64,000 bases of DNA from Planctomycetota bacterium (GCA_026693085.1 JAPLNB010000316.1:21474-85473), one strand, 5' to 3'. Counted from the first letter of the stretch, positions 8,742 through 46,874 are shown. Translations and numbers: made by a program. Notes: generated by a model not told the origin, from the sequence alone.

Positions 8742-11700
8742 CTATCTGGTATCCGTGCGCTTCTCGCCATATACATACTCCTGCCGCAGCAGCAACGCCT
8801 TCAGTCTTTCCTTGGTTGAGGGTATGGGTGCGTCAAAGGCCAGCCGGAAGCCAACATCGGCGAACTTCTGCGACAAGTCAACCGCCCCGAGCCGTTGGGG
8901 TTCCTCAGGTTGCCATCGGGGGATGGACAGTGCCGAGCCCCCGATCACGAACAGGTCTCGCACTTTAAGGCTTCCGTTGGCACTGCTCACAAAGCGGCTT
9001 CTTAAGAACGTGCATATTGAATCAGGTTTTTGAATGGACAGTTCACGCCAGACGAGTAGGTCGTTGCACACAAACTCGGAGACATTGCCAACCAGGTCGC
9101 AGAAACAGTCGCCATGCACTGCATCGGCAGGACGGAACCAGAGGATCCCGTCATCGTATTCGTCCTCCGGGCCGGTTGTCGTCCAAGGCCCCTTCATCAA
9201 TTTGGACCAAGACGTCGGCGAGCTGCCTTCAGACAGTTTCATTGGCTGGAATATCCCCTCATGCGGCACAGCACGACCAATGCCCAACTGCATCAGATGC
9301 TCGTTCTGGATGCGCCAGGTCCGGTCCCTGAGGTTTGCTGGAGGAGGAGGATCCTGAGTCTTGTGCTTGTACGCCAGACACCACTCGTCTACCGTCGGCA
9401 GCCGACAATGCAGAAGGGAGGCCATATAGGCAGCCGCGGAGATGGAGACCTGCTGCATAGGATGCATGCGGCCAGGACGATCGACTCTGGTTTTGCTGGC
9501 CGCCGCGTAGTACTCGCCGCCGATATACCGCTCATCAATCCAGTTGTTGGCCGGGATCATCCCTTCCGGGCGTCCTCTCGGTGACCAATTCCAGCAATGC
9601 ACGCCTCGCGATCGGTCGTCCTTCTGCAGTTCCCTGAGGGCAGCCCATTGGCCATACGCGCCGACCACATCGGCGAACAGCCCGAGCGGCACTTCCGTTG
9701 CACACAGATAGAATGGTTTGGCGCTGTCGCCCGGAGGATCGATCCTGATGAACTCAACCTCGTGCCGGCGATCGCCCCCGACCGGCCAGGTGAAGTGGAT
9801 GTGGTTGCCGGAGGTGTCGGCCTTCCAGTCCGGTCGATTGGGGCCGGCGGTCGTCGGATCGGGCGTTTCGGATCCGCCGGCTTGCAGCTTTGCCAACTGC
9901 TGAAGCAACGGAGCGACGTCGCCCAGTTCTCGCGCATCCAATTTTCTCGCAGGGTCAAGAAACGCCGAGACGGCTTGACGAGCGGCAGTATCGTCCACGG
10001 ACTCGGCGGCCAAGTGTCTTTTCAGAGTGTTCAGCAGGATGTTGAAGCGTAGAGAGACGCTGATTCGATCCGCCTGGTCGTTCAAAATCCTGTCTGAAGT
10101 GAGGCCAAACACGGGTAATCGTTCCAGGACGGCCTCCAAGCTCTCCTGGCTCTTGGCCGCTTTGTAGAAGCTGAGCCAGCGGTCGATCTTGTGAGCAGCC
10201 AATTCCTGCTCCAGCAAGGTTGTGCGATCCGCCTTGTCCAAACGACCGATGCGTTTCTCAAGTTTCCCGAGGATGGCAACCTCGTCATCCATCGCTTTGA
10301 TGTCAAACGGCTCGATGGGAAGCTGCGCCTGCCGAATCGCCTCAACGGGTTGCCGCAGGGGCTTCATCGCGTCGGCCACCTTCGGATCGGCGAAAGGAGC
10401 AAGCTTCTGCGCGTCGTCCCACGCCGCAAGCAACTCCTTCTGCTCCAGCGGGAGCAGATAGCCTACATCCAGTCGTTCCGCGATGCGGGCGCAGGCCCGG
10501 ACCAGTTCGCGTGCCTGGGCCATCCAACGACTACTTTCCGCCTCCAATTTTTCGATCTCCGGGGCCGACCTGAAGGCGGGCACGCCACTGGGCTCTGCGA
10601 TCAGTTCCAGCGCTCTTGCCAAGGCGGACTGCCGTCGGGCGAGTGCCGCGGCTGCGATGGCATCCTCCCAGCTCTTGCCGCTGGATTTCGGCATCTCCAG
10701 CTTCGCATCCGTCGCCTGCAGTCGAGTCATCAGGGACTTGAGCGATTCCACCGCCTTCTGCCGGGCTGCCAGGTCCGGCACATCGTTCAACAGTCTGTCG
10801 CGCCTCGCGACCCATTGTTGGTTCAGAATGGGCAGGCCATCCAAGCGGAAGTCGCGAATCGCCAGGAGCCATTTCGCGTACTGTTCCCGTTCGGCGAGCT
10901 GGTTCGTGGCAAGCCGGATCGATCGGGCAAGGTCCTGGTCGAGTTCTTTCAGTGCATTCTCGATCGTAGCCTGCTGCTGTACGGTCCACGTGCCGGCCGC
11001 GACCTGAGCCATGCGATCCGGAAAGGTCGCCAGGGCTTTCTCCAATTCCGGGCCTGGCACCGCCGCGTGTTGGTCATTCAGCGTCTTGAGCAGGGCATTC
11101 AACTCGCCCAGTCTGGTTGGGCCTGTCCAGTTCAATCGCGGGTCCGGGGCGGATGGAGCAGGGACATTCTGGCTATTCTGGGGACCTGTGTTCTGATTCA
11201 CCGGGACTGTTTTTGAACCACTCCCCTGGGGCCTCAGGAACGAATATGCCAGCACCATCGCCACAACGGTCAGCGCGGCAACACCAACCGCTGTCGCCAG
11301 CCACTTGGAACGTGCACGACGACCACCAGCGGATACGCGCGGCTGGAACGATGGCGGATGCTGCGGGGGAAAGCGAAAATCGGGGCCTGACGTGGGCCTG
11401 GTCACGGCTGGAGGTGGTCCGACCGCCGCGGGCCCTGGCACTGGCGCCAAAGCCTGGCATTCGGCAGTTGCCGCACTGCTGGAACTCGCTGGGCCATGCG
11501 CCGGCGTTTCCGCGAAGGTTCGTCCCGCCTCGGCAGGGGGCAAGGCTGTGGCGACCGGCTCCACCGTCTGCCCCTCCGACAATGACAGACCCCGCGGTTT
11601 CGCCTCGGCAATCGCCGATACGGGGACGAACCGGGGAACGGGATCCACGGCCGTAGGGGAAGTAGGCTCGGCCATCGGTTGCGGGATCGATGGCGCCGGC

Positions 11701-13064
11701 GGTTCCGGCTCGGGCCGGGAAGACGTCAATTGCACGGTCGCGGGCGAGGGCGTCGGACCCAGAGGAACTTCCGGGGCTACGAGGGCACTTGATGGGGCTG
11801 GGGCAGCAGGCTCCAGCTCGGGGATCGGCCGCTCGGGTGCCCCAGTCTCCTTCAGAACCGCAGGGGCGGGAATTGACGGGTCCCGGTCGGACAGGCGGAC
11901 GGGCACGGACGCCGCCTGCTCTGGCGCGCGGGCTGCGGGGCGAAACTGCGGCAACGGCAGCGTAAGGGGCGGCAGCGGCACAGGCGCGGCGGATGCGGGG
12001 GACTCCTGAGGCGTGATCTCAGGCATGGGCACAGGTGGTCTTGACTTGTCTTCCGCAGCGGCAATTGTTGGAGCGGCCGCGGTTTTGAGTGGCATCGGAC
12101 CCGTCGCGGTCCGCCCGCGGGCAATCAGTTCCTGGCAACTGGCGATGAAATCCAGTCCCAAGGTGTAGGGGATGCTCGTCGTGAGGGGGATACGGGCTGC
12201 GGATGTGCGGATGCAGAAGAAACTGGAGGGAGCCGGCTCACCGACGAGAAGGTCCACCCAGTCCTGGTCCAGGGGCAGGAGGGCCACGGCCGGGCTGGCT
12301 TGGCCCATCAGGCCGGCCAGGAACTCCAGCCAGGTCCGCAGCGAGTCCTCTGGCAGGTCGCCGACACGGGGAACGCGCACGTGCTCGGCGTCGGCCGGGG
12401 ATGTCCTGGCAATTTGCGAGCTGCGGTGGCCGCTGATGACATCGTGCTTCCGGTCGATCTGGTAGAGGATGCGCAGCAGCCCCTGCGAATCGGGGCCGAG
12501 CGCGGGGTCATCGGCAAGCCGGGCAAGGGCTTTGTGGGACGGTTCGGGATCGGCCTTGGCCGCCTCCGGCGCCGCCGTCAGCCGACGCAGTTTCTTCTGG
12601 GCGGAGTCGATGATGCCCCGCACGGCATCAAGAGAGGGGGCGGCATCACAGCCCTGCTCGACAGCCTCCAGGCTAGGGAGAACGGTCCGCAGCACCCAGT
12701 CCAGCGGCAGGTTTCGGCATTCAGCGCAGACGATGAGCGGGAAGCCACGCCGGCCCCCGGCGTCGGCGGAAGGCCAGATCCGGCCTGCGAAAACGGCCTG
12801 GGCATTCCGCCATACGATGATGTGCTTGCATTCCGGCAGCCGCTCACTGGGAGCAAGTCGCTCCCATTTGGCAACCAGGGATTTCATCCCCTGGTCGTAG
12901 AGAAGGCTCCAAACAGCGGCGAGGCGAGGACTTTCGGCGGGATTATAGAGGAAGTGCTCGATGTAGGTCGGATGCTTGCCGAAGAGGCTCAGAGCCAGCC
13001 AAGGCTTAGGGTCCTTCTCATCCTGGACCAGCCTTCCAAGCAGTTTCTGGAATAAGGCGGCCAT
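8742..13064 (-). CDS. TagF(ImpM)-like N-domain, Pro/Ala/Ser-rich linker, single TM, helical ectodomain, C-terminal FGE-sulfatase-like domain (1440 aa)
   Basis: TagF signature 'LSLFGKHPTYIEHF...WPSADAGGRRGFPLIVCAE' (nt ~12735-12985). Low-complexity P/A/S region ~11280-12060. TM 'WLATAVGVAALTVVAMVLAYSFL' (~11240-11310). FGE-like 'PFYLCATEVPLGLFADVV' (9672-9713), 'GNVSEFV', 'FVIGGSAL', 'FADVGFRLAFD' (~8800-9800). AGGAGA lies 5 nt before the ATG. The gene sits directly after tssM, as tagF does in imp-type clusters. Confidence 0.75.
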   Translation of the reverse strand: MAALFQKLLGRLVQDEKDPKPWLALSLFGKHPTYIEHFLYNPAESPRLAAVWSLLYDQGMKSLVAKWERLAPSERLPECKHIIVWRNAQAVFAGRIWPSADAGGRRGFPLIVCAECRNLPLDWVLRTVLPSLEAVEQGCDAAPSLDAVRGIIDSAQKKLRRLTAAPEAAKADPEPSHKALARLADDPALGPDSQGLLRILYQIDRKHDVISGHRSSQIARTSPADAEHVRVPRVGDLPEDSLRTWLEFLAGLMGQASPAVALLPLDQDWVDLLVGEPAPSSFFCIRTSAARIPLTTSIPYTLGLDFIASCQELIARGRTATGPMPLKTAAAPTIAAAEDKSRPPVPMPEITPQESPASAAPVPLPPLTLPLPQFRPAARAPEQAASVPVRLSDRDPSIPAPAVLKETGAPERPIPELEPAAPAPSSALVAPEVPLGPTPSPATVQLTSSRPEPEPPAPSIPQPMAEPTSPTAVDPVPRFVPVSAIAEAKPRGLSLSEGQTVEPVATALPPAEAGRTFAETPAHGPASSSSAATAECQALAPVPGPAAVGPPPAVTRPTSGPDFRFPPQHPPSFQPRVSAGGRRARSKWLATAVGVAALTVVAMVLAYSFLRPQGSGSKTVPVNQNTGPQNSQNVPAPSAPDPRLNWTGPTRLGELNALLKTLNDQHAAVPGPELEKALATFPDRMAQVAAGTWTVQQQATIENALKELDQDLARSIRLATNQLAEREQYAKWLLAIRDFRLDGLPILNQQWVARRDRLLNDVPDLAARQKAVESLKSLMTRLQATDAKLEMPKSSGKSWEDAIAAAALARRQSALARALELIAEPSGVPAFRSAPEIEKLEAESSRWMAQARELVRACARIAERLDVGYLLPLEQKELLAAWDDAQKLAPFADPKVADAMKPLRQPVEAIRQAQLPIEPFDIKAMDDEVAILGKLEKRIGRLDKADRTTLLEQELAAHKIDRWLSFYKAAKSQESLEAVLERLPVFGLTSDRILNDQADRISVSLRFNILLNTLKRHLAAESVDDTAARQAVSAFLDPARKLDARELGDVAPLLQQLAKLQAGGSETPDPTTAGPNRPDWKADTSGNHIHFTWPVGGDRRHEVEFIRIDPPGDSAKPFYLCATEVPLGLFADVVGAYGQWAALRELQKDDRSRGVHCWNWSPRGRPEGMIPANNWIDERYIGGEYYAAASKTRVDRPGRMHPMQQVSISAAAYMASLLHCRLPTVDEWCLAYKHKTQDPPPPANLRDRTWRIQNEHLMQLGIGRAVPHEGIFQPMKLSEGSSPTSWSKLMKGPWTTTGPEDEYDDGILWFRPADAVHGDCFCDLVGNVSEFVCNDLLVWRELSIQKPDSICTFLRSRFVSSANGSLKVRDLFVIGGSALSIPRWQPEEPQRLGAVDLSQKFADVGFRLAFDAPIPSTKERLKALLLRQEYVYGEKRTDTR

Positions 13065-13260: not shown

Positions 13261-16200
13261 CTAGTTCCCGTCAGGGCCGGTCAGCCAATCAACGAGTGGC
13301 GTAATATTCGCATTCGCGTCAAAGGTGAAGATAAGCACCAGCGGTGCCTTACCCTCCTGGACGAGATACTCCAGGCACCATTCCTGGGGTTTCGGATTAT
13401 CAACCTTCTTCGCGCGGCCGTCGGCCATCAGGTGCAGGAGTGACCAATCGTTGCTCATCCTGCCGTTCTTATTCGGATCAGGCAATGACGCATTCGGCTG
13501 TGTGTTCTTCCACTTCGGATTCTTTTCCCCCTTATCCGCTGGTTCCACAAAAAAGCCAAACTCGAAAATCAATGGCTTTCCGGGCAACTTGAACTTCATT
13601 AAGTCGCTGCCCTTGTCATTAAGAGCATGAAGGTTAAGGACGAGGGAAGCGTCGCCCTGTTCGATCTTGAGATGCTCTGCGACCGGAACTAACGCTGACG
13701 AATTGCGACATGAGATGGTGCAGGAAATGGATTTTTGGGGATCCGGAAGTGCATTTAGGAGCTTGCTCACGCGTTTCAGATATTCGTTCTGCTTGTCATT
13801 GAGGCCGGCCGTCCACCGAATATTCTCGATGGCAGAATTGATAAGGATGATATCGGCGTCTTTGCGGGGGTTTTCGAGCCCAATCTTGGCAAGCGAGTCC
13901 GCCTCATCGCTCTTCCCAGAGTCGCCTAGAATAATGAGTTGTTCCTTCGCTTTGCCGAGTTCATTGGTGGTCAGATCACGAACACCTGGGCGCCGGACCA
14001 ACGGAAAGGCGTCCAGGCCCTCCATCGCCTTAACGGCGGCCTCGATCCTGTCCTTGCTATCCCGACCTATCAGTTCCAAGGCCTTGACACAAAGATTTCT
14101 GCAGTAGTTTTGCACGAAGCCATCGCTTGTCACGTAATACGTTCCCCGGAACTTACTGGACTTACTGGAGCGGAGATTCCTGCTCGCTTCGAGCGGATCC
14201 TTGTCCAACTTAGGCCACGCCTCTACCATGACCCCGAACTGCTTCATCCAGGCCTCGTCCTCCAAGGACGCCTGACCGGCCACGTCGACCGCATCGAGTT
14301 TCCGATCGATGACTTTGAGCGCTTCGTTCACACTCACGAACAGTTTAGTCAGCCCCTTGGAGGCAAGCGTCATGTTCGATTGCAGTTCGATGAGGTCGCC
14401 ACGCAGCCCTGGCCAATCTTTGGCGGTGACGTTCGTCCCCTCCTTAAGCTGCCCGCGCCAGTAGTTTGTGTAAGCATTCTTGTAGGATTTCTCAAAGTCA
14501 TCTTTGGACTGTGTCAGTTTCTCCGAGAGTGAGTCACGCTCGATAACCGGGGGTTTGGCGGATAGGTGTGTGTCTAGCAGCGGCCAAGCCGCCTGGATGG
14601 TTTTTACCGAGTTGGGGTCAAACTTGGCGTCGAACCTATCGTCAGCATTCCAGGCAATGAGCGGAATCTTCGTTCGTGCGGCTCCCTGGCCCCCCGCCAG
14701 TGTAGATACAAGAGCCTGCCACGGCTTAGCGTCTTTCGCCGGGGGCAGGTTGTCCAAAACTGTACTGATGAACCTGTACTTTTCGATTGGCCGGGCAAGC
14801 GTGGCAATTGCGAAGACAAACGCAGCCTTGGCCTCCGTGGCAGGGGGGTCCTCCGTAGAAGGGAACGCTTTGACCACCGCGTTTCGCTCGGCGGGCAGCC
14901 TCTCAAGTTGTGATTCCAACTTCGTGATGTCGCCCTCTGCATTCAAGGCCGCGGAGAGGCGGTTGTTGGCCCGGACAAGCAACTGCCAGTAAAGATGGTA
15001 CCGGGCGGGTTTGGTCTTCGGCTGGGTGGTGGGCTGTTCGGCCTGCTTGACGAACTCAGCCAATATCATGTCGAACTTCGTGACCTCGTCGCTGGGCGGT
15101 GGTTCAAGGCAGGCTTGCAGCTTGGCCAAGCCGTTGTCATCGGCCGCATCGTCCACACGCCACTTCGTCGCCGTCTCGATTAGCTTTTCCGCTGTTGATT
15201 TTGCCGTCTCGAGGTGCTTTCGCTTGGAAATAAGCCATGCGGGGGTCTTAGCCTCATCAGGAATCAGTGCCAGGATGTCACCCAAGTTCTTGACTCGTTC
15301 TTGGCAAGCTTCTACGCGGCGGGCATACGTGTCAGCCGGGCGCGTGGTGCTGGTCTGCTCTCGCCAGTGCTTCAATGGCTCTTCGTCCCAGGCAACTCGC
15401 GCGTTATCAATCGCCGTCACCTTTTCTCCCAGCTCACCGATCTTGGTGCTCCACTCGCCAGCGGCCGTCTCATGATCCTTCCATGTGGTGAGCGTCTGCC
15501 CGGCGACCGGGGTGAGCGACTTTAACGCAGTGTGATAGTCGGCAAGTGCGGTTTTCAGGTTGGAGGCGCATGTGTACGCCTTGTCGAGCTTCTGGCCGGA
15601 ACTCTCCAGATACGCGATGTAGGCGTCTATCCCTTTCACTACTGCGTTTTGAGCCGTCGTGCCGCCGCGGATTTGAAGGCCAGGAGGCTTCAGGAGCGGG
15701 GCGAAGTCGGACGCCTGGGTCCAAGCCCCCTGCAATGCGAGTGCGTCCTTCAGGGCCGCTTCTTTGTCCGCGCGCGGACCGGATAGGAAGAGGTATTTCA
15801 TCATCGGACCCAGGTCCGGGCTGGGAGGGGCCTCAGATGCCGACATCTCAAGCTTGATAAGCGACTGCAGAGACGTGGTTGCTTCATCGGACCATGTGGC
15901 CCCGGGTTCCTTCTGCATTTTGGAGCGGACTTCACCGAGGATCGGGTGCATTACGGTCGCACCGACGAACAGGGCATGGGCCTGCTTGCAGCGATCCTCC
16001 AATTCATTCGGTTTGCGGAGAGCCAGATAGCGAAAGACCGGAGAGATATAAATAGGCTTCTTGGCAAGTGTCTCGCTCCGCTGGATGACACCCAGCAACG
16101 TTGGCTGCTCCATGCCGGTTATCTGAGCGTTGGCGTATTTAGGGCCGGGTTCAACGATGGCTGGACGTGACGCTGGGGTCAGAGCCGGTTTCAATTTATC

Positions 16201-17631
16201 GGCGTAGAATCCGCTATGCTCGCCTATACCCGAACGGAGTGTATAAGCAGAGAATCCAATCAGGGCAGAAAGAAGAAGGATCGCGGCAAACCCGCCTCCC
16301 AGGGCGGCGGTTTTCTTTCGCCGCCGGTAGGAATCCACGTTGCCGACGCGGGTGACCAGGCCTTTCTCCGGGAAGACCTTCTCGATGAACAGGTCGCGGA
16401 GGAAGTAGGAGCGGACACGATCCCAACTGCGGCCCTTGGGCAAGTCGTTGACGGAAATGCCCAGGGCGGTGGCTAGTTCCGGGTCGTAGGGCGATCCCTT
16501 CTGGATGGACGAGGTGAAGTAGATGCCGCGGAGGAACAGGGGCTTCTGCGACCACGCACCAGCAACGAAGACGGTTTCCAGGTATTGCCGCAGCCGCGGG
16601 GCGATGCGGACCAGGTTATCTGGCAGGCCGTACAGGTTGTCCACCTGGTCGAGACGGCGGGGGGATCCATCGTCGGCCTTCATCGGTTCCAGCAGCAGCC
16701 GGAGCCGGCGCCGCAGGAGGCGCTGGCGGACGATCTCGAGGTGCTGATCGACCAGCTTGGGATCGAACTCCACGTCGAGCTTGGCGGGGTTGGACCACCC
16801 CAGCATCTGGTTTTGCCGCTGGGGATCGTCGATGCTATCGAAGAATTCGTTGAACCCGCCGATCAGGTCGCACTTGGTGATGACGACGAAGACGGGAAAG
16901 CGGATTCCCAGCGTGATCTGGACATGCTCGAACTGGGCGGCGATACGGCCGGCCTTGCGGCTGATCTCCTCCGAGGTGTCGGTGAGGAGCTTGTCGGCGG
17001 GAATCATCAGGAGCAGGCCATTGATGGGGCAGTGCGGGCGGCAGTGCTTGAGCAAGCCAAGGAACTCTTCCCACTCGCTGCCGGTGCCGGCGGGGATATC
17101 CTCGAACATCAGCCGCCCGGCGGTATCGAGAAGGACGGCATCGTGGCTGAACCACCAGTTCATGTTGACGGTGCCGCCGGAGCCCTGGAAGGGATCCTGG
17201 AGGCCGGGAATAAACCGGATCTGGGACCGGCGGATGGCCTCGCTCTTGCCGCCGGCGGGTTCTCCCACGAGCAGGAACCAGGGGGTGCTGTCGAGGCTAC
17301 GCCCCGCCTCGCGGAACTTGCGGACGGCCCCATCGAACTCCTTGCGCAGGGCGTCAAGCAGGGCAATCTGATCGACCTTGGAGATGGAGCCGGGGGTGCC
17401 TTGGGCGACTCGCTCGCCCAGGGCAGCGCCGAGTGCAGCGCCCCGCCGCCGTCGAAGCGAGTACAACCCCACCACCAGCATCGCTACGAAGACGAGGCCA
17501 GCCACCACGATGGCCACGAGCCGCCAGTCCCGGAATATGAGGTAGGCAAGCCCGATCGAGCCACAGGCGGCGGTGCCCATCCCACCCACCTTGGCCGGAA
17601 CAGGGAGGTCATTTAGGGTCGAGGATCTCAT
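13261..17631 (-). CDS. tssM: T6SS membrane-complex protein TssM (IcmF family)
   Basis: 1456 aa. N-terminal TM segments, Walker A 'LLVGEPAGGKSEAIRRS', 'AVLLDTAGR', 'FPVFVVITKCDLIGGFNEFF'. 4-nt ATGA overlap with tssL. Confidence 0.9.
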   Translation of the reverse strand: MRSSTLNDLPVPAKVGGMGTAACGSIGLAYLIFRDWRLVAIVVAGLVFVAMLVVGLYSLRRRRGAALGAALGERVAQGTPGSISKVDQIALLDALRKEFDGAVRKFREAGRSLDSTPWFLLVGEPAGGKSEAIRRSQIRFIPGLQDPFQGSGGTVNMNWWFSHDAVLLDTAGRLMFEDIPAGTGSEWEEFLGLLKHCRPHCPINGLLLMIPADKLLTDTSEEISRKAGRIAAQFEHVQITLGIRFPVFVVITKCDLIGGFNEFFDSIDDPQRQNQMLGWSNPAKLDVEFDPKLVDQHLEIVRQRLLRRRLRLLLEPMKADDGSPRRLDQVDNLYGLPDNLVRIAPRLRQYLETVFVAGAWSQKPLFLRGIYFTSSIQKGSPYDPELATALGISVNDLPKGRSWDRVRSYFLRDLFIEKVFPEKGLVTRVGNVDSYRRRKKTAALGGGFAAILLLSALIGFSAYTLRSGIGEHSGFYADKLKPALTPASRPAIVEPGPKYANAQITGMEQPTLLGVIQRSETLAKKPIYISPVFRYLALRKPNELEDRCKQAHALFVGATVMHPILGEVRSKMQKEPGATWSDEATTSLQSLIKLEMSASEAPPSPDLGPMMKYLFLSGPRADKEAALKDALALQGAWTQASDFAPLLKPPGLQIRGGTTAQNAVVKGIDAYIAYLESSGQKLDKAYTCASNLKTALADYHTALKSLTPVAGQTLTTWKDHETAAGEWSTKIGELGEKVTAIDNARVAWDEEPLKHWREQTSTTRPADTYARRVEACQERVKNLGDILALIPDEAKTPAWLISKRKHLETAKSTAEKLIETATKWRVDDAADDNGLAKLQACLEPPPSDEVTKFDMILAEFVKQAEQPTTQPKTKPARYHLYWQLLVRANNRLSAALNAEGDITKLESQLERLPAERNAVVKAFPSTEDPPATEAKAAFVFAIATLARPIEKYRFISTVLDNLPPAKDAKPWQALVSTLAGGQGAARTKIPLIAWNADDRFDAKFDPNSVKTIQAAWPLLDTHLSAKPPVIERDSLSEKLTQSKDDFEKSYKNAYTNYWRGQLKEGTNVTAKDWPGLRGDLIELQSNMTLASKGLTKLFVSVNEALKVIDRKLDAVDVAGQASLEDEAWMKQFGVMVEAWPKLDKDPLEASRNLRSSKSSKFRGTYYVTSDGFVQNYCRNLCVKALELIGRDSKDRIEAAVKAMEGLDAFPLVRRPGVRDLTTNELGKAKEQLIILGDSGKSDEADSLAKIGLENPRKDADIILINSAIENIRWTAGLNDKQNEYLKRVSKLLNALPDPQKSISCTISCRNSSALVPVAEHLKIEQGDASLVLNLHALNDKGSDLMKFKLPGKPLIFEFGFFVEPADKGEKNPKWKNTQPNASLPDPNKNGRMSNDWSLLHLMADGRAKKVDNPKPQEWCLEYLVQEGKAPLVLIFTFDANANITPLVDWLTGPDGN

Positions 17632-18359
17632 TTTGCCACCTTATCATTATCGATGATCTTCTGGCTCCAATCGGAAACGCCTTGAACCGCATCCGTAAGC
17701 GATTTAGACATTTCCCTGTACAGATAGGCGTTGACGATGAACAGAAGGAGGATCAGCCCGAGGAGCGCTACGCCGATGGGTGTCAGCGATCGAAGCGGCG
17801 GCGCCGTAAGGTTGTCCGCGATGAGCGATTCATACGCCTCCGGGCAGATGCGGGGCACGCCCTCGGGGTCCATCATACCCCTGATGCGCGCGGCGATTGC
17901 CTCTTTATGTTCGTGAACGACCTCGGGCTCATCCTCGTGCTGGCCGAGGAAGCCCAGGCCCATGCAGGTGTAGAAGACAGCCAGGCGCTCATTGACGGCG
18001 GCGACCTGTTCTCCCCTCGCCGGCTCCCCCATGGTCTTCTCCAACTCAAGAAAGAAACTCTGCTCCCCGGTGTAAATGGGCGGCGTCTCCTCCACAGCCA
18101 GTGGTTGCCACTGGCTGGCAAAAGGAAGAGGCCCGGTGCGGATGAAGTAGTCCACGGCGAACACCAGGGGAAGCCGGATCTTCTGGTACTGATCGGGCAG
18201 TCCCGGCGTGGAAAGGGAATTGACCCTGATGGATTCGAACAGGCCGCGGAGTTCGTGGCGGACCTGTTCCGCCTGCCCATGGGGACCGCTTGTGCGTGCC
18301 GAGCGGTTCAGGCGGCAGATGTATTGAAACAGCGGCTCGCACAGCTCGATCAGGGTCAT
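17628..18359 (-). CDS. tssL: T6SS membrane-complex protein TssL (DotU family, no PG-binding extension)
   Basis: 243 aa. 'LCEPLFQYICRL...LPLVFAVDYFI' DotU-like core and a C-terminal TM 'IGVALLGLILLLFIVNAYLY'. Lies between tssK and tssM. Confidence 0.85.
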   Translation of the reverse strand: MTLIELCEPLFQYICRLNRSARTSGPHGQAEQVRHELRGLFESIRVNSLSTPGLPDQYQKIRLPLVFAVDYFIRTGPLPFASQWQPLAVEETPPIYTGEQSFFLELEKTMGEPARGEQVAAVNERLAVFYTCMGLGFLGQHEDEPEVVHEHKEAIAARIRGMMDPEGVPRICPEAYESLIADNLTAPPLRSLTPIGVALLGLILLLFIVNAYLYREMSKSLTDAVQGVSDWSQKIIDNDKVAK

Positions 18360-18363
18360 GGCA

Positions 18364-19743
18364 TTACCTCGCCTGGGGGATGGTCATATACAGGGTGAAC
18401 ACGGCATCCGGAAACTTATCGGCGGGCCTAACGATGGCCACAGCGCGGTTGGGGTCATTGACGATGGCGTTCCAACGCTGCTCGCTATCGCCGGTGCGGT
18501 CCAGGCGGTAGTAGATCACCCCACCCTGGCGGAGCAGGCCGGGTGGCAGGTTGCGTTCCTCGATAAGGCGGACGCCGCGCACGAGGCGATTCTTCCACGC
18601 GTGAGCGATCAGCTTGAAGTTGTCCTGGTGCTGCACCAGTTCCGACAAGGCAGCGGGATCGCCCTGCGCGACGACGCCCAGATAGTAGGCATTGGGCTCC
18701 TTGAGCTGTTGCTCAGTGAGCCGGGCGACCAGCAGGCCCTCCTCCTCGGCGAATCGGGCCGCCCAGATGGGCTCGGGCACGGTATCCGCGATGATCGGGT
18801 CAATGCGGCGTTCGAGATCGAGGAAGACGGGTGCGGGATCGTCGTGGCGATACTGGGGGACATCAAACAGGCTGTCGGACTCCGGGTGAAGGGCAAGCAG
18901 CTCCGCCAGCAGGTCGCGCAGCTCGAGGTAGAAGAGGAACGGCGGAATTCCGGCCGTGGCGACCAGGGCAGGCAGGCGCGCGGCAAAGCGGTTCAGAACC
19001 CGCAGTCGGAGGAGCAGACCGAGCTGGGCCGGCTGAACCAACTTGAGGTTGAAGCCGGCTGCGCGAAGTTGGGGAACGAGCTCGTCGCGGCTGGCGACGA
19101 TCTTGTCCGCGATGGCCTTGACGATCCGGCGCAAGTCCCGAGAGCCGTCCAGCACCAGGCAAGGGGGAATGAAGTTTTCGTCGGGTATAGGGCGGCCCAC
19201 GGCGGCGCCGGCCGCCCGCTTGACTCGCAGGAGCGGCATTGTCTCAAACTCCCCCTCGAGTTCGCCGGCCACCAGGCGCGCGTTGATGCGGCGGATGGAA
19301 ACCGGGCGGGGGTTGGCGCCCGTGTTCTCGTCGTGCATCTCGGCATCCAGCGGCTGATAGAGCGCATCGGGCCGCCGTGGTTGCCCGTCGTTCTCGCAGG
19401 AGTTGGGGCGTCGTTCCTGCCAGACGGGAACGGCAAGGCTGATCAGAAGCGATCCGTCGGCCGCATCGAGTGCGGCCTTGATATCCAGCGGTTGCAGGTC
19501 GGCATTACCCGGAACCCTCACCTCGCGACCGCTACGGAGGATCACCCTCAGCCGGGCAAATTCCACGCGCCCGGTAGCCAGCGCCTCGTAGGACAGATCG
19601 GCCTCGATCACCCCATAGGGAAACGACCAGGCCAGCATGCGATCGCTGTCCATCCGGTCCAGCAGACGCCTCTGCATTACCTGGAGATGATGGGCCTCAA
19701 GGTACATCCCTTCACACCAATGGACCAGCTCGAAAGAAGCCAT
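18364..19743 (-). CDS. tssK: T6SS baseplate protein TssK
   Basis: 459 aa. The N-terminus 'VHWCEGMYLEAHHLQVMQRRL' matches the TssK 'W.eGm.L.pqHfQ' signature. Position is upstream of tssL. Confidence 0.9.
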   Translation of the reverse strand: MASFELVHWCEGMYLEAHHLQVMQRRLLDRMDSDRMLAWSFPYGVIEADLSYEALATGRVEFARLRVILRSGREVRVPGNADLQPLDIKAALDAADGSLLISLAVPVWQERRPNSCENDGQPRRPDALYQPLDAEMHDENTGANPRPVSIRRINARLVAGELEGEFETMPLLRVKRAAGAAVGRPIPDENFIPPCLVLDGSRDLRRIVKAIADKIVASRDELVPQLRAAGFNLKLVQPAQLGLLLRLRVLNRFAARLPALVATAGIPPFLFYLELRDLLAELLALHPESDSLFDVPQYRHDDPAPVFLDLERRIDPIIADTVPEPIWAARFAEEEGLLVARLTEQQLKEPNAYYLGVVAQGDPAALSELVQHQDNFKLIAHAWKNRLVRGVRLIEERNLPPGLLRQGGVIYYRLDRTGDSEQRWNAIVNDPNRAVAIVRPADKFPDAVFTLYMTIPQAR

Positions 19744-19758
19744 GGATCAGTCTCCACG

Positions 19759-20610
19759 CTAATGCCCCGACCCCTCGCTCTTCCGTTCTTCTATACACGC
19801 ATCGATAGCCTGGCGGATGGCCCGTTGCATCGGCGCCTCCTCCAGTTGAGGGGCCAGACGCTGGCTGTACACCTCCCAGCACCTGGCTTTGGCGTTCTTG
19901 AAAAACCCGCCCGCCTCCGCCTCCACCGCGGTTTCGATATTTTCCGGACGGAGCTTCATCAGGTGCTGCTCGCAAAGCTTGGATGCCACACCGGGCAGCG
20001 CGCTGGTTACCGCCATCGCCTTCTCGATTCTGTTCCGGAACTCGGCCAAGTTGGTCGTCAGAGATGAATCGCGTTCGTCTTTGAGGGACTGATCGACCAG
20101 TCGTTTCCACCCATCTCGCTGGCTGCTGGAGTCCACGGCCTGCACAAATTCGACGAACCTCTGCAGTGCCACCGCCACGCGGGGCAACTCAACCGGAGCA
20201 GGCAGGGGCTTGGCAGGTGGCGGCATTGGCGCGGGGCTACCGACGCGCCATGCCTCTCGCAATCGCTTCATGATCTCCTCCCGCTGGTTCGACGACAGCT
20301 TGGCCCCCTGCTCAATCACCCGCTGCAGCATGGAATCCAGATCCAATTCATCCGGTTTAACGGGCGCGCTGCCACCAGCCGCGTCACCCCAGGCAGGGAA
20401 ATGGCCGGACAGCTCGGCCAAGAACGCGCGACACTCCGAATTGGGAACGTCTTTCAAGGCGGCCATCAGCTCCCGATACAGGAACTCCTCGCGAGCTGCG
20501 CCATCCTCTTCGCTGCAATTGATCTGCACGAGGCGCAGCGCATTGGCGGTCGCGTTCACTCTCCGCAGTAGATCGTTCGACAAGGTGCCCAAAGCTGATT
20601 CTCCAGCCAA
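19759..20610 (-). CDS. Hypothetical T6SS-associated protein occupying the Fha/TagH slot, with no FHA domain
   Basis: 283 aa, protein-like composition, ends 16 nt before the tssK ATG. The start is a TTG without an obvious SD, so the start is uncertain. No FHA motif is seen. The C-terminal 'GGFFKNAKARCWEVYSQRL' weakly recalls the TagH C-terminal region (from memory). Confidence 0.55.
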   Translation of the reverse strand: MAGESALGTLSNDLLRRVNATANALRLVQINCSEEDGAAREEFLYRELMAALKDVPNSECRAFLAELSGHFPAWGDAAGGSAPVKPDELDLDSMLQRVIEQGAKLSSNQREEIMKRLREAWRVGSPAPMPPPAKPLPAPVELPRVAVALQRFVEFVQAVDSSSQRDGWKRLVDQSLKDERDSSLTTNLAEFRNRIEKAMAVTSALPGVASKLCEQHLMKLRPENIETAVEAEAGGFFKNAKARCWEVYSQRLAPQLEEAPMQRAIRQAIDACIEERKSEGSGH

Positions 20611-21360: not shown

Positions 21361-24300
21361 TTATTTGGCTAAGACGTAGTTCGCCTTGGCAATGAATGTG
21401 CGGAGGGGGGATGTGGCGGGGGCGGCGCTGGCGCTAAAGGCGAGGCGGAAGCCGACGTCGGAGAATGCCTCAGGCCGGATCGCCCATGGGTTTCCGTTGA
21501 TCCTTTCAACACCTGAGGTGAGGTCTTTGGGGTCGGGCGCGGAAAGGGCGGACGCACCGATGATCAACAGTCTCACCTCTTTATTCTGAGGCTTCCCGTC
21601 CTCCCCGAGTGCCAACGGTTCATTCGTCACGAACTCGGCAACGTTCCCGATCAGATGATAGAAGTCGGTGGCCTTCCCAGGGTCTGGACAGACCTTGTCG
21701 AACCAGAGGGAACCATCCACGTAAGGCAGGCCCGGCCCTCCAGTTACGAATTTGCCGTTCAGGTTCTGGTCCCATATGTCGCCGGCAGCTTGGGGGTTGG
21801 ACGAGTACGAGCCTGAGCTTGGGTCGGGCGCGTTCAGCCAAGGGGGCTCAGCCTGCAGCAACTTTGGAACGTACTCGTGCTGTATCTGCCACACCGAGTC
21901 GCGCAGGTTCGGCTTTGCGCCGGGCGGCATCTTCTTTTCCGCCGCCTGCCATTCTTTTTCGGTCGGCAGGCGGCAGCCCAAGAGATCCGCAAGACGCACT
22001 GCTGCCTTAGAAGTAAGATACTGGATCGGGTGCTCACGTTCGGGGGGACCGCCAGGGGGCAACAGACCGTTGGCATCGCGCAAGTTCGGGGCATAGTAGT
22101 CGTTCTTCTCGCGATCCTGTCTGGGCATCCAGCCCTCTTTCTTCAATGGCTCCCTGATGGTTTGCTTGTCGAGAGACCAAGTGAGCACACTACTGCCGTC
22201 GCTCCACACACGTTGAATTTCATCCTTCTCGACTTGAGGCCACAACGCACGCGACGCCGTGTAGATATCCGCGAACAACCCCACGGACATTTCTGTGGTG
22301 CAGAGGTAGGCGCCCGGACCATGACCATCGGCCGTCTTGACGTGGCGGAAGAATAGTGTGTGTTTCTTGTTCTGGGGCGAAGACCAGGTGAACTCCAAGA
22401 CCCCGTCTTGCTCGTTCTTCTGAAGGGTCCACTTGACTTTGGCTTTTTCCGAAGCGGGGCCGGCGTCGGTCGGTTGACTGGACGGCGCAGTAGCGGGTCG
22501 CGTAGCCGGACCGTCGTTATTGAGGGCGGTCTTCAGTTCGCCCTTCAGCTTGCTGAGTGCCGAATCGTCCGGGGGCTCGTTCCCGTTCTCGATTAACTTC
22601 TTCATTAAATCCCCGACGACCTGCTTCAGTTTCTCGTCCGAGGCCTGTTTCAGGTTCTCGTCCGAGACCTGTTTCAGCAGCAGATCATGCCTAAGGTCGG
22701 CGGAAACATCCTTATCCTTCAGGGGCCATGGATCGTCATCAAGAAGAAAGCTCTTCTTGCTGGCAATCGCCGACTCCAAGTCCTTTAACGTATGAATGTT
22801 CGGCGCGCGCTTCGTCCAGAATCCCTTCACTTCCCTAAGGACATCCTCCTTTGCCTTGCCAACTAGCTCTTTGAGAAGCTGGCCTGCCAGGTCGAACTCC
22901 TCGCTGTTCTGGAAGCTGTCCTCAGACAATGCGTCAAGTCGGCGGAGCACAGCCAGCTTCACAGCCAGCTTCGCAGCGGGCTGCCGGTAGATTTCCGAGA
23001 GCGTCTTGCGATCAGTTTTGTCCGCGACCGTCTGCAGCAAAAGCTCGACTTGCGGCCAAATGGGGTTGCCGCTCAGTCCAAGCTTCACTTCATCGTCCTT
23101 GGCGATATTCTGGGCCATGTCAGTAACTTTTTTCTGTTCATCGGCAGGGAGGTACTGACCCGACAACCTCTGACAAATCAAGCTCCAGCCATCGCTTAGC
23201 GGTGTCAGCTTCTTATGCCACTCCTTGTATGCCGATTTCGCGGAAACGAACTTTTGCTCGAACCGGTTCGTCCAGTCCGCCAGCTTAGTCCAATCCGCGG
23301 GGGCGGGGACAAGTGATTTGGCCGCCTCGCTTCGCGCTGTATTCGCGAGGGTCTGGAACTCCTTCGGCCAGCCGTTCGTCGCAGCATCCTCAGAAGCCCA
23401 GGTTTCTAAATCCGTCAGGTTTTTGCCAGCCTCCTCCGCGGTCTTGATACTAGCCTCGTCTTGCGAGGACAGCCGCTTGACGTACGGTTCCCACTCTGGT
23501 TTTATCTTCAGCGCCTTGAACTCTATTTTGTCCAGAATTGCGATTCGTGCCGCAACGGTCCCACCAGCGATAGCCACATTAATCGAATCGGCCAGTTGCT
23601 TTATATTCGCATCGAGCGTCTTCAGCTCGCCTGGCCTTTCTCTAAGAGCTAGTTGACACGGCGATTTCCCTTTGATCTGGTTAAATGATAGACGGAGATT
23701 GGTATTCCGTTTCGCCAATTCGTCAATCTTCTCAGCCGCAACCTTACTCGTCTTAGCATTCTCAATCGATGCGTCGACTTGGGAAAACCGATTGCCAGGC
23801 CAGCCGGCGAGCATGTTGTCAAACCTCGTCTTCTCGTCGGGCTTCAATTTGCGGCATTCGTCAGCTAATGTCGTCCAACGCTGATACCGATCGCTCGGGC
23901 TCGTGGCAGGTTGTGTCGTCGCCAACTTGCGTTCAGCAAACACCACCCAATCGACCTCAAGCTTGCGATCTCCAACAACGTACGAGTGAATGTCACCAAT
24001 CGCCGTCCCGACTGTGCTCAGCTTTTTCTCAAGACTCCCAAGGTCATTTGCCCCGAGCAGTTCGTCTGCCATGAAGCCGGATAGTCCAGCAAGATCCGAA
24101 TCTCCTGGCCTGGCAAGAAGAACTTTCGCGATTTGGTCATTGATCTCCGTGCGCTTCTTACTCGACGTCGCAAGGCGATCGCGAAGACCCTGGACTGCGG
24201 CGGCGAGTTCGCTCGGTTTCATGTCGGACTTGAGCTTGCCATCGGGATCAATTCCCGGCCTTTCTGGAATGATGGTGCCCGCTCGGACCGAGTTGAATGC

Positions 24301-25767
24301 CTTCTGGGCAGCCTCCATCGACTCGGTGGCTTTGCTTAATTCATCAGCGAGCGCTCTGCATGCCTCCCCAAAGCCCTCCGCTGGCTGCGTGGCGGGAGCA
24401 GGTACAGTCACGGTGATGCCGAGGGACTTGGCAGCGTTCTCAAAGGCCATTCGCTTCTCGTTGATGCCCTTCCGCCACTTGACCATATCGTTACAGACGT
24501 CGGTGAGATTCTTGACGAGGGTTGCGGAAGCGATCAGACGATCAGCCGGGTGTTTGCTCTTGATGATGGCCGTCACGATTCCAGAGTCGCCGGGGACGGT
24601 CTCCGGGATGCTTGTCCGAGCATTCGACAGGTTGTTGCGAAAGGTATTTTCGTCGTCGCCGAAATCCACGCGATCCTTCAGCGTTCTCAGTTCCCCGACC
24701 AGCGCGGTGTCAAAGCTCTTCAATTCCTGCTCGAGATCCGGGATCTTGCTCTTGAGGTCAAGAACCGTGGTGATCTGAGCCGGCTGAACGATGCCATCCG
24801 GCGTTGGTTTGATGGTCGCTGCGACGAGCCTGCTGAGGCGCGGGTCTGACGACGTGACCGGCGTCCACGTCTTCGGGCTCAGGTCGCTTTTGGCCTTTGT
24901 CAGAGCTTCCCGCGCCATGTTGACTTCGCGCCGGATGCTGTGTCCTTTCCACTTGCCCGACCAGGAAAGTGAGATGGACTCAAACCAGGGCCCGGTCTGC
25001 TTCTTGCCGCCTTCTTTGTCAGACTCCCAGGGGGGCCGTTTAGCGCCACCCGACAACAGGCCAACATCTTCGCATTTGCCGATGATCAATTTGAGAGTGG
25101 GGTCACGTTCCCAGTTTTGGCGCGTACCCTCTTGAGCGACCAGTCGTGCGAATTCCCCGAACCAGGGATCATTTTTCAGGGAGGCCAGCGCGCTCCTGTC
25201 ACGCCACCCGACCAGCGCCTGGCCGATGAAATACCCGGCCAGCCCCATCACAAGGGCGATGATGAGCCAGCGAGGAGGGCGCGGCAGGCGGGGTTTCATC
25301 TCCTCCAGCGCCGCGACCAGGTCGGACAGCTTCGTCAGCCGCTGGGAGGCGTCGGGGTCCAGCAGGCGGCCGCAGAGGGAGCACCATGCGTCGACGTGTC
25401 GCCGCAGGCCGGTGAATAGCTTCGGGTCGATCGGATAGTTGAAGATCTTGTCAAACTGTTTATGCGTAACCAGGCGGAAGATCAGCAGGCCCAGCGCATA
25501 CAGGTCGTCGGCTTCCGATGCCGGCGCTATACCCGGCGGGTCGGCCAAAGCAACCCCTGCACGCGACAGCCGCCGCGGCCCGGAGATTAGGATGGTCGCT
25601 GGACTCAGATTGCCGTGGGCTCGCCCGCGAGTCCTGATGAGCTGGTCCAACCCCGCCGCCCCGCCGCTGATCAGGTTGTGCAAGGCGGCGTGTTTCAGCT
25701 CAACGCCGTACTCGAGCAGCCACTCGGCGGACTTTTCGTAGCCTTGGATGGAGCGGGAACTGGCCAT
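21361..25767 (-). CDS. PpkA-slot pseudokinase remnant (C-lobe only), TM, helical ectodomain, C-terminal FGE-sulfatase-like domain (1468 aa)
   Basis: 'RAHGNLSPATILI' replaces HRDLKPxN and 'LSRAGVAL' replaces DFG (nt ~25555-25617). 'EADDLYALGLLIFRLV' is subdomain IX-like. There is no Gly-loop or VAIK and no space for them, because the tssJ-like stop lies 41 nt upstream. TM 'WLIIALVMGLAGYFIGQALVGW' (~25205-25275). FGE-like 'GAYLCTTEMSVGLFADIY' (22261-22320), 'IGNVAEFV', 'IIGASAL', 'FSDVGFRLAFS'. The ectodomain is paralogous to 8742..13064. Confidence 0.75.
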   Translation of the reverse strand: MASSRSIQGYEKSAEWLLEYGVELKHAALHNLISGGAAGLDQLIRTRGRAHGNLSPATILISGPRRLSRAGVALADPPGIAPASEADDLYALGLLIFRLVTHKQFDKIFNYPIDPKLFTGLRRHVDAWCSLCGRLLDPDASQRLTKLSDLVAALEEMKPRLPRPPRWLIIALVMGLAGYFIGQALVGWRDRSALASLKNDPWFGEFARLVAQEGTRQNWERDPTLKLIIGKCEDVGLLSGGAKRPPWESDKEGGKKQTGPWFESISLSWSGKWKGHSIRREVNMAREALTKAKSDLSPKTWTPVTSSDPRLSRLVAATIKPTPDGIVQPAQITTVLDLKSKIPDLEQELKSFDTALVGELRTLKDRVDFGDDENTFRNNLSNARTSIPETVPGDSGIVTAIIKSKHPADRLIASATLVKNLTDVCNDMVKWRKGINEKRMAFENAAKSLGITVTVPAPATQPAEGFGEACRALADELSKATESMEAAQKAFNSVRAGTIIPERPGIDPDGKLKSDMKPSELAAAVQGLRDRLATSSKKRTEINDQIAKVLLARPGDSDLAGLSGFMADELLGANDLGSLEKKLSTVGTAIGDIHSYVVGDRKLEVDWVVFAERKLATTQPATSPSDRYQRWTTLADECRKLKPDEKTRFDNMLAGWPGNRFSQVDASIENAKTSKVAAEKIDELAKRNTNLRLSFNQIKGKSPCQLALRERPGELKTLDANIKQLADSINVAIAGGTVAARIAILDKIEFKALKIKPEWEPYVKRLSSQDEASIKTAEEAGKNLTDLETWASEDAATNGWPKEFQTLANTARSEAAKSLVPAPADWTKLADWTNRFEQKFVSAKSAYKEWHKKLTPLSDGWSLICQRLSGQYLPADEQKKVTDMAQNIAKDDEVKLGLSGNPIWPQVELLLQTVADKTDRKTLSEIYRQPAAKLAVKLAVLRRLDALSEDSFQNSEEFDLAGQLLKELVGKAKEDVLREVKGFWTKRAPNIHTLKDLESAIASKKSFLLDDDPWPLKDKDVSADLRHDLLLKQVSDENLKQASDEKLKQVVGDLMKKLIENGNEPPDDSALSKLKGELKTALNNDGPATRPATAPSSQPTDAGPASEKAKVKWTLQKNEQDGVLEFTWSSPQNKKHTLFFRHVKTADGHGPGAYLCTTEMSVGLFADIYTASRALWPQVEKDEIQRVWSDGSSVLTWSLDKQTIREPLKKEGWMPRQDREKNDYYAPNLRDANGLLPPGGPPEREHPIQYLTSKAAVRLADLLGCRLPTEKEWQAAEKKMPPGAKPNLRDSVWQIQHEYVPKLLQAEPPWLNAPDPSSGSYSSNPQAAGDIWDQNLNGKFVTGGPGLPYVDGSLWFDKVCPDPGKATDFYHLIGNVAEFVTNEPLALGEDGKPQNKEVRLLIIGASALSAPDPKDLTSGVERINGNPWAIRPEAFSDVGFRLAFSASAAPATSPLRTFIAKANYVLAK

Positions 25768-25808: not shown

Positions 25809-26351
25809 TCAATCCTTCGCGGGATTGGGAGTTGGCACGATATGCATCGGCACGCCGACGGGCGAGATTGTGATGCTGATGGTGATCGGGTCGCTCCACC
25901 GCTTCTTATCCAGTGGCAGGATGCAGATCCGCGTGTCTTTCATGTCTTTCTCGTCCTTCGATGCTGGCAGGTTGGCCAGGACCACCAGCCACTTTGCCCC
26001 ATACTTCTCCCAGTTCGCCCAGATGGGGTTGTCCGCGGCAAGGACCATGGCCGGCTGCTTGTCTTTGTCCAATATCATCTCCTTCACGACGTTGTTCCGC
26101 TCTTTCGCCGCCCTCAGCAGATTGCCCGCTTTGAACCAATCGTCAACCAGCCCCAGCCCCTTCGTATTGAACCTTTCGAGATCATCGCCATCCGTGACAC
26201 CAACCAAGTGGACGCGAACCGAGGGCTGGCTGATCTCGCGATCCAGGGCCACACTGATATCCGACGGCGGCCGAGTGGGGCCGTTGCACGCGGCAGACAT
26301 CATCGTAAGGGCCAGGACCACGAATCTCACGGGAATTTTTGTCGCAGTCAT
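25809..26351 (-). CDS. tssJ: Outer-membrane lipoprotein, probable TssJ
   Basis: Lipobox 'LALTMMSAAC'. 'SVRVHLVGVTDGDDLERF' and 'AKWLVVLANLP...RICILPL' resemble the SciN/TssJ pattern (from memory). It is the only candidate for the otherwise missing 13th core gene. GGAG lies 8 nt before ATG 26351; the ORF track starts at GTG 26357. Confidence 0.55.
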   Translation of the reverse strand: MTATKIPVRFVVLALTMMSAACNGPTRPPSDISVALDREISQPSVRVHLVGVTDGDDLERFNTKGLGLVDDWFKAGNLLRAAKERNNVVKEMILDKDKQPAMVLAADNPIWANWEKYGAKWLVVLANLPASKDEKDMKDTRICILPLDKKRWSDPITISITISPVGVPMHIVPTPNPAKD

Positions 26352-26457
26352 ACGCACACTCCGGGAGTAAGATTAACTCGCCCTGTGCCCGCGCCCGGCG
26401 GGCGCGGGAAGGAGCACCGGGCTGGAAATGGCGACTCAGACATCCACCGTGGCCGGT

Positions 26458-46822: not shown

Positions 46823-46874
46823 AACAGACCCGACCTCCCGTAATGGATCGCTCTTTGCTACTGCGGCTGCCGGC

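Follow-up and report, generated by a model that had tools for sequence, protein, structure and literature searches.

The window examined here, 64,000 nucleotides from a Planctomycetota bacterium (GCA_026693085.1 JAPLNB010000316.1:21474-85473), holds an essentially complete type VI secretion system (T6SS) cluster on its minus strand, and the subject of this analysis, hereafter the target, is the last gene of that cluster: an open reading frame (ORF) of 1440 codons without interruption, running from an ATG at 13064 to a stop codon at 8742. A Shine-Dalgarno sequence (AGGAG) stands 5 nt upstream of the ATG, and the predicted protein is identical to NTU53_18825, an NCBI entry from a metagenome-assembled genome (MAG) that is annotated as a hypothetical protein of a Planctomycetota bacterium. 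The first-pass annotation, made from the window alone, had read the ORF as a TagF-type domain followed by a linker, one transmembrane (TM) helix, a helical region and an FGE-sulfatase-like domain, and this architecture holds, the helical region being only probably helical (Table 1). All of the short strings that it had quoted are present in the protein: FGKHPTYIEHF at residues 28-38, DAGGRRGFPLIV at 101-112, FYLCATEVPLGLF at 1118-1130, GNVSEFV at 1326-1332 and VGFRLAF at 1404-1410. The Pro/Ala/Ser-rich linker, estimated at ~260 amino acids (aa), measures 263 aa (~323-585). Two boundaries had to be moved: the TagF motifs do lie in the first ~120 aa to which that domain had been assigned, but the modelled fold spans residues ~1-322 and comprises two subdomains, and the region described as ~470 helical residues is present but has a length of ~430 aa (640-1069).

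The cluster begins with TssA, TssB, two TssC, TagJ, TssE, TssF (split), TssG, ClpV, Hcp and VgrG, continues with peptidoglycan-binding and HEAT-repeat proteins and PAAR, and ends with a lipoprotein, a paralog of 1468 aa (hereafter the giant), a 283-aa protein, TssK, TssL, TssM and the target. Its TssC is ~63% identical to TssC of the imp-type clusters of Rhizobium and Tistrella, in which the gene order is FHA/TagH-(TssJ)-TssK-TssL-TssM-TagF-(PP2C)-kinase; in the Rhizobium, Tistrella and Paraburkholderia clusters the annotated tagF directly follows tssM, the same slot as that of the target. Given this order, the target fills the TagF slot and the 283-aa protein fills the Fha slot. The evidence set out below shows that the target is a TagF-family accessory protein of an imp-type T6SS in Planctomycetota.

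Table 1. Position of the target ORF, its parts and the neighbouring genes of the tssK-L-M-tagF block (coordinates count from the first letter of the window)
Feature	Position	Strand	Basis
Whole ORF, 1440 aa: TagF-like domain, linker, TM helix, probably helical region, FGE-fold domain	8742..13064	minus	
TagF-like two-subdomain fold, residues 1-322, with G29-K30 and S99-x-D101-x3-R105-x3-P109; predicted cytoplasmic	12099..13064	minus	AF2, Foldseek, hhalign
Pro/Ala/Ser-rich low-complexity linker, residues 323-585; predicted cytoplasmic	11310..12098	minus	composition, sequence
Single TM helix, residues ~588-610; predicted N-in, C-out	11235..11303	minus	hydropathy
Ala/Leu/Arg/Glu-rich region, probably helical, residues ~640-1069; predicted periplasmic	9858..11147	minus	composition, weak profile matches
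FGE-sulfatase-fold domain without catalytic Cys pair, residues ~1070-1428; predicted periplasmic	8781..9857	minus	Pfam, AF2, Foldseek
TssM, 1456 aa, immediately upstream of the target	13261..17631	minus	only N-terminal IcmF domain recognised
TssL/DotU	17628..18359	minus	
TssK	18364..19743	minus	
283-aa conserved protein, Fha/TagH slot, candidate partner of the TagF domain	19759..20610	minus	Fha C-terminal similarity, position
Giant, 1468-aa paralog: pseudokinase remnant, TM helix ~168-190, long periplasmic region, FGE-fold C-terminus	21361..25767	minus	
Lipoprotein of 182 aa, conserved, encoded upstream of the giant; candidate for a TssJ-like role	25809..26357	minus	signal peptide and lipobox

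An ortholog from an independent sample (P0002, 1469 aa, 86% identical) has the same continuous frame, and its linker differs from that of the target by in-frame indels only (85.5% identity, with a 32-aa insertion and a 4-aa deletion). Because this ortholog keeps one frame and its linker indels are in frame, the fusion is neither an assembly artefact nor the product of a frameshift, and it recurs in further relatives. When the two proteins are compared part by part, conservation is highest in the TagF domain (95.4%) and, among the folded parts, lowest in the FGE-fold domain (82.7%).

The alignment of the N-terminal domain started from an ortholog encoded at a T6SS locus of Puniceicoccaceae (33% identical, E=5e-50), and a profile search seeded in this way gave 27 relatives. 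They conserve the motifs FGKHPGW(D/N)DH and W.S.DGKGR..YPM..C, and six positions (G29, K30, S99, D101, R105 and P109) are invariant across the 27 family members and all present in the target. The AlphaFold2 (AF2) model built from the family alignment was of high quality (predicted local distance difference test, pLDDT, 88; predicted template-modelling score, pTM, 0.89), and in a Foldseek search of PDB every one of the seven matches at E<=1e-3 was a crystal structure of TagF, from A. baylyi (9t0n, E=1.5e-8) or from P. aeruginosa (6iz8 and 2qnu). Their target-normalised TM-scores were 0.49-0.56 and their probability was 1.00, against 0.08 for the next match. For comparison at the sequence level, canonical TagF domains were aligned from annotated T6SS clusters on Rhizobium, Tistrella and Paraburkholderia plasmids (three PGAP-annotated TagFs); hhalign put the G-K and S-x-D-x3-R-x3-P of the family in register with the canonical GKLP..GDF and PS.D..GR.FP (P=2.9e-4 over 96 columns, at a probability of only 40%), the proline of the family and of the target lying one residue further along than that of PaTagF. 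In A. tumefaciens and P. aeruginosa, TagF depends on the G-K and S/D/R residues to bind Fha and to repress (Lin et al. 2018, PMC5995506).

Neither phmmer with the N-domain nor hmmsearch with the family profile retrieved a TagF among the PDB sequences; TagF was reached by structure comparison and by hhalign only. Since the profile on its own does not lead to the solved TagFs, we call the domain a remote TagF homolog, as its modelled fold indicates, and not a member by curated thresholds. Weak matches to the Pfam TagF_N profile occur in 12 of the 27 family members (best E=0.016). An attempt to reach TagF by transitivity through the Verrucomicrobial ortholog of the domain failed, that ortholog having no Pfam or NCBIfam match at all. 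For residues 1-200 of the target the curated TagF profiles give sub-threshold matches only, and by the refuting condition set in the first-pass annotation the TagF call would have fallen; it is nevertheless upheld because of the fold, the in-register functional motifs, the gene position and the suggestive profile-profile comparison.

The linker is composed of 22.6% Pro and 17.8% Ala and, at its full length in the target, is the longest seen; most fused relatives have no such linker, and their TM helix comes directly after the TagF fold, ~322-374 residues past the point where the N-domain match begins (in a single exception, 472). The TM segment is the only one in the target whose Kyte-Doolittle average over 19 residues exceeds 1.5 (maximum 2.26), the sequence GGRRARSK forms a positively charged flank on its N-side, and the N-terminus of the protein has neither a signal peptide nor a lipobox. 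One hydrophobic segment, this flank and the lack of a signal peptide argue for an N-in, C-out orientation, and the TagF domain is accordingly predicted from sequence to be cytoplasmic and the FGE-fold domain periplasmic. Within the ~430-aa region that follows the TM helix, the family profile found only weak matches, to coiled-coil and helical-bundle chains; some of the fused relatives have a homologous counterpart of it (P0047, for example, at 1.5e-13).

The C-terminal domain passes the Pfam PF03781 cut-off marginally (24.6 bits against 23.3), and the match is clearer in a relative (P0003, 36.3 bits). The AF2 model of this domain, built from an alignment of 41 sequences (pLDDT 82.7, pTM 0.86), gave 45 PDB matches at E<=1e-3 in Foldseek, all of them FGE-fold proteins, among which were bacterial and human FGE, pFGE, EgtB, CarF and CalU17. 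The fold comparison with FGE, PorK and GldK that the first-pass annotation had suggested therefore recovered the FGE fold, but no PorK or GldK structure is among the top 50 matches. By sequence, phmmer of the domain against PDB returned nothing and the domain profile returned only weak matches, on the RLPTE.EW motif.

Given an FGE fold and a Pfam match above threshold, the domain might be a working enzyme held at the T6SS, one that generates formylglycine or a related oxidase; we consider this extremely improbable. An active FGE requires two copper-binding cysteines near the C-terminus, and this pair is not conserved in the target. C1220 of the HCRLPT motif is the only Cys column in most sequences (37 of 41; the next, C1121, in 23 of 41), and it aligns with a non-catalytic Arg of the RLPTE.EW motif in solved family members. 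No Cys lies between GGSALS (1375-1380) and VGFRLAF, which we take to be the segment that in human FGE contains the catalytic Cys336 and Cys341 (the residue numbers are corroborated by the titles of PDB mutant entries). With no Cys pair in the catalytic segment, the C-terminal domain is, according to the model, a non-catalytic FGE fold, like those of PorK and Tsi3.

Word-indexed searches (four matches for the full length, one for the N-domain) had left the impression of an orphan fusion, and this was overturned by an exhaustive HMMER search with the N-domain profile, which found 1024 representative clusters at E<=1e-3 and 711 at E<=1e-30. About 50 of the best 150 clusters are 1100-1900 aa long and have a C-terminal FGE-fold domain (E 1e-56 to 1e-13). 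Among GTDB species representatives, the N-domain family is present in 332 loci/species, mostly Planctomycetota; all locus counts given here, for architecture and for tssM/tssL neighbours, refer to the best 80 of these 332 loci. The 80 loci are almost all from Planctomycetota (Phycisphaerae, Sedimentisphaerales, Tepidisphaeraceae, Pirellulales, Planctomycetaceae), with a few from Verrucomicrobiota and Kiritimatiellae, and every one of them comes from an uncultured MAG, which is a practical limit on work with the system. A full fusion with an FGE-fold C-terminus is present at 22 of the 80 loci, and a long form cut by the contig end at four; seven loci have a tail-anchored protein of ~350-490 aa and three a protein of ~700 aa with a TM helix, so membrane tethering recurs in the family. 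The gene is short and its product soluble at 43 loci, and at one further locus a short form is cut by the contig end. The fusion is a recurrent, family-level architecture found in about a quarter of the related systems.

The proteins with a TM helix include a third class of ~600-1000 aa, in which the helix follows the TagF fold and leads into a periplasmic extension that has no FGE-fold domain (loci L069, L070 and L079, representatives P0048-P0175). Upstream, tssM and tssL precede the TagF-like gene in 66 of the 67 loci that have at least 5 kb of upstream sequence. Of the loci with 10 kb of upstream sequence, a single one, from Phycisphaeraceae (L072, contig_6 530601-551464), has no tssM or tssL ahead of its TagF-like gene; the gene encodes a 368-aa TM-containing protein and may be an orphan copy.

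The giant carries the second FGE-fold ectodomain of the cluster. Its periplasmic region is ~900 aa long, its C-terminal ~400 aa are homologous to the C-terminus of the target (BLASTP E=3e-30), and it is homologous at both ends to another such protein, P0004. In all three giants compared (that of the window, P0003 and P0004) HGN stands in place of HRD and no DFG motif is found, and the Pkinase matches of giant-type proteins are weak (E=0.032); the target itself has no kinase domain. The giant heads a block of lipoprotein, giant, 283-aa protein and tssK-L-M-tagF that is conserved in Planctomycetota and Verrucomicrobiota. The 283-aa protein has no FHA domain; 16 of 31 orthologs weakly match T6SS_FHA_C (best E 4.6e-4), and hhalign of its family against four TagH proteins aligned the C-terminal 81 columns (P=4.7e-4). 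Nor did the window yield a PP2C phosphatase, an active kinase or an FHA homolog.

The giant is encoded in the same operon in 11 of the 11 assessable fused loci against nine of 29 short-form loci (Fisher p=1.5e-4, a statistic that ignores phylogenetic non-independence). A star-like neighbour-joining tree paired the ectodomain of the target with that of the neighbouring giant, as a recent duplicate would be; the ranking by bit score contradicts this. Of 14 fused-type ectodomains, 12 match another of their own type best, and the top matches of the target are fused-type, the giant of the window itself ranking 28th of 53. As fused-type ectodomains match each other best, the architecture was inherited and did not arise by a recent local duplication.

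The immunity proteins of T6SSs include a family of FGE-like proteins (bioRxiv 10.1101/2021.05.21.445229), and the cluster encodes proteins with peptidoglycan-binding domains as well as a PAAR protein; on this ground the periplasmic FGE-fold domain might neutralise a periplasm-acting T6SS effector in the manner of Tsi3. Such a role is very unlikely, as the domain is fused to a core-operon regulator with no adjoining effector (tssM and a histidine kinase flank the gene), its position after tssM is kept in nearly all loci, and its paralog forms part of a pseudokinase protein; for proteins of the Tsi3 type, the descriptions place the genes inside effector-immunity modules.

We give an even chance to the reading that the fusion is a TagF checkpoint with a membrane tether of its own, in cis, a brake made dependent on the state of the envelope through its own ectodomain and the pseudokinase giant. 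The TM helix would keep the checkpoint beside the TssL/TssM membrane complex, and would thereby do in cis what the membrane protein TagZ does in trans for the TagF of A. baylyi. The TagF domain would bind the FHA-less, Fha-like 283-aa protein, or alternatively Hcp or the baseplate, and so block or time assembly, while the periplasmic region and the FGE-fold head, probably together with the ectodomain of the giant, would tie this brake to the envelope or periplasmic state; a ligand, a partner, damage or location are possible inputs. The module as a whole might then be a phosphorylation-free counterpart of the PpkA/PppA/Fha/TagF circuit.

Several points weigh against this reading. As regards the TagF assignment, the target stays below the cut-offs of Pfam PF09867 TagF_N (15.1 bits against 27, E=0.023) and NCBIfam TIGR03373 (13.9 bits against 41.2, E=0.043), and it deviates from its own family at five near-invariant positions (G33T, W34Y, D36E, K103G and M110L); the PDB sequence searches without a TagF and the low hhalign probability belong here as well. 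As regards the envelope input, more than half of the 80 loci have the short soluble form, and 20 of 29 such loci are without a giant, which argues that the ectodomain is dispensable for T6SSs of this kind; the association of giant and fusion carries the phylogenetic caveat given with it. Under overexpression, inhibition by TagF in A. baylyi does not need the periplasmic part of TagZ (bioRxiv 10.64898/2025.12.08.692957). Lastly, the system of the window may be defective or mis-assembled: tssF is split in two frames (42290-43901, minus strand), residues 1-335 of Rhizobium TssF matching 43901-42882 and residues 414-593 matching 42835-42290 in a different frame. Either the gene is truly frameshifted or a pseudogene, in which case this T6SS may be non-functional, or the MAG was assembled wrongly here.

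The main rival to a regulated brake is a structural scaffold, in which the ectodomains of the target and the giant are built into the trans-envelope complex as a hub or ring and the TagF domain couples the baseplate; we regard it as rather unlikely. PorK, GldK and GldJ do reuse the FGE fold as a non-catalytic ring or docking hub without the two catalytic cysteines (PMC12421860), and the fused form is always accompanied by the paralogous giant in assessable loci. The TssM of the window has an unusually large, divergent periplasmic portion, of which the ~1000 aa past the third TM segment match no IcmF_C or other profile, and no TssJ was recognised in the window by profiles or by a Tistrella TssJ probe. 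A machine that needs no FGE ectodomain is, however, what the short-form loci without a giant imply, and most loci encode the short soluble protein. A possible TssJ equivalent is also present in the conserved lipoprotein upstream of the giant, which has no Pfam match and is 35% identical (E=4e-26) to the equivalent gene of a Verrucomicrobial locus (L003, 8077-8601); the idea that TssJ is absent and replaced by FGE domains was dropped on account of this lipoprotein. Furthermore, the target has no lipoprotein signal, the fold search returned no PorK or GldK structure in its top 50, and the FGE-fold domain is the part that is conserved least among the folded parts of close orthologs. The first-pass annotation had left the choice between a sensor and a scaffold open; with many such systems lacking both a TagF ectodomain and a giant, the evidence leans against an obligatory structural role.

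Alternatively, the TM helix and the ectodomain may only fix TagF at the membrane or at a site in the envelope (peptidoglycan or outer membrane), all regulation being cytoplasmic. A bare TM helix is evidently viable, as the tail-anchored proteins show, and the finding on the periplasmic domain of TagZ quoted above would be in keeping with a passive anchor. We judge it improbable all the same, because a conserved module of ~850 aa with a folded head, strictly paired with the ectodomain of a pseudokinase, would be a large investment for anchorage.

The membrane-tethered, envelope-dependent brake also has a more specific form, in which the TagF-TM-FGE protein and the pseudokinase-TM-FGE giant make up a heteromeric trans-envelope switch that replaces threonine phosphorylation, and to this we attach little confidence. 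The paralogous FGE-fold domains would sense a cue from the envelope or from a target cell, the signal would reach the TagF domain and the pseudokinase by mechanical transmission through the membrane, and these two would jointly hold or release the FHA-less, Fha-like assembly factor. If true, this would be the first defined input pathway that acts directly on TagF, and a new firing logic for the T6SS.

Several neighbouring genes were recorded in addition. Immediately upstream of tssA lies a gene for a sigma-70-family factor with regions 2 and 4 (50227-51030, minus strand), which may be a dedicated transcriptional regulator of the T6SS cluster. The two tssC paralogs stand in tandem (45257-48377, minus strand), as in the imp-type clusters of Rhizobium and Tistrella, and TagJ/ImpE lies downstream of them. 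A two-partner-secretion pair adjoins the cluster (51365-61960, minus strand), comprising an ShlB/FhaC-like transporter (59825-61960) and a 2785-aa beta-helix protein (51365-59722); at a Phycisphaeraceae locus (L007, 11110-20984), ShlB and a 4644-aa two-partner-secretion protein come right after the TagF-like gene. Directly downstream of the target are genes for a GAF-HisKA-HATPase histidine kinase and a receiver-HDOD protein (4266-8364, minus strand), and this pair was rejected as a dedicated partner of the target because the neighbourhood is not kept in related loci.

Many T6SSs are inhibited or held at a checkpoint of assembly by TagF, which acts post-translationally and whose partners in the cited literature are cytoplasmic (Fha, Hcp, possibly TssM), and no defined external input on TagF is described there. 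The target resembles the TagF proteins of P. aeruginosa (PA0076), A. tumefaciens (TagF-PppA) and A. baylyi (ACIAD2683) in its two-subdomain fold, in the G-K and S-x-D-x3-R loops and in the position of its gene directly after tssM, in a tssK-L-M-tagF block. It differs from them in that the family has (D/N)DH where canonical TagF has GDF, the target itself having IEH, in that its sequence is too divergent for curated profiles, and in that it is covalently joined to a TM helix and an extracytoplasmic module of ~830 aa. A 2025 survey of 655 TagFs mentions TagF-PppA as the only fusion, and sulfatase/FGE domains, Planctomycetes and pseudokinases are all absent from a review of T6SS accessory factors published in 2026. 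Our literature search, whose coverage is incomplete so that an earlier description is possible, found no membrane-anchored or FGE-fused TagF, and, with the same incomplete coverage, no description of the Planctomycetal TagF-like family, which is delineated here; it comprises ~1,000 clusters, in Planctomycetota and Verrucomicrobiota, and escapes the current profiles.

Judged by its membrane placement, the closest analogue is the Acinetobacter TagF that TagZ recruits to the membrane, a recruitment reported, within the cited literature, only in a 2025 preprint. The first-pass statement that known TagFs are soluble and cytoplasmic needs to be qualified accordingly, the A. baylyi protein being brought to the inner membrane by a bitopic partner. 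In both systems, by prediction in the case of the target, TagF is held at that membrane by a single-pass, N-in segment with a periplasmic domain, variable in TagZ, and the authors of the TagZ study suggest a possible coupling to periplasmic cues (bioRxiv 10.64898/2025.12.08.692957). The link is non-covalent in A. baylyi, where a 26-residue cytosolic peptide of TagZ lies in a groove of TagF, whereas it is covalent in the target; the periplasmic part of TagZ has no predicted fold, whereas the target ends in a folded FGE-type domain. A natural fusion of a TagF-folded domain to a folded periplasmic one may serve as a Rosetta stone, an argument for the membrane as the site of TagF action and for a possible wiring of TagF to the envelope.

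With the PpkA/PppA/Fha pathway the cluster shares a bitopic kinase-like protein, an Fha-related protein encoded upstream of tssK and a TagF encoded downstream of tssM, all in one operon. The kinase-like partner in the window, however, has HGN for HRD and no DFG, the Fha-like protein is without an FHA domain, no phosphatase was found in the window, and the kinase-like protein and TagF carry paralogous ectodomains. The pairing of the target with a pseudokinase of like ectodomain and with an FHA-less, Fha-like protein suggests that the system is a phosphorylation-free descendant or cousin of the PpkA/Fha/TagF circuit.

PorK, GldK and GldJ on the one hand and Tsi3 on the other share with the target an FGE fold without catalytic cysteines, a periplasmic location (predicted in the target), where the fold serves, or in the target would serve, contacts between proteins, and the context of a secretion system. 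They are lipoproteins or small periplasmic proteins, absent from the top fold matches, whereas the target is a bitopic fusion to a cytoplasmic regulator. PorK is an outer-membrane lipoprotein that has insertion domains besides the FGE fold, in a type IX secretion system gene context, whereas the target lies in a T6SS context and has no lipobox; Tsi3 sits in effector-immunity modules, whereas the domain of the target is the C-terminus of a 1440-aa core-operon protein. PorK/GldK and Tsi3 being the first two cases in which a catalytically dead FGE fold is put to use in connection with secretion, the target would add a third.

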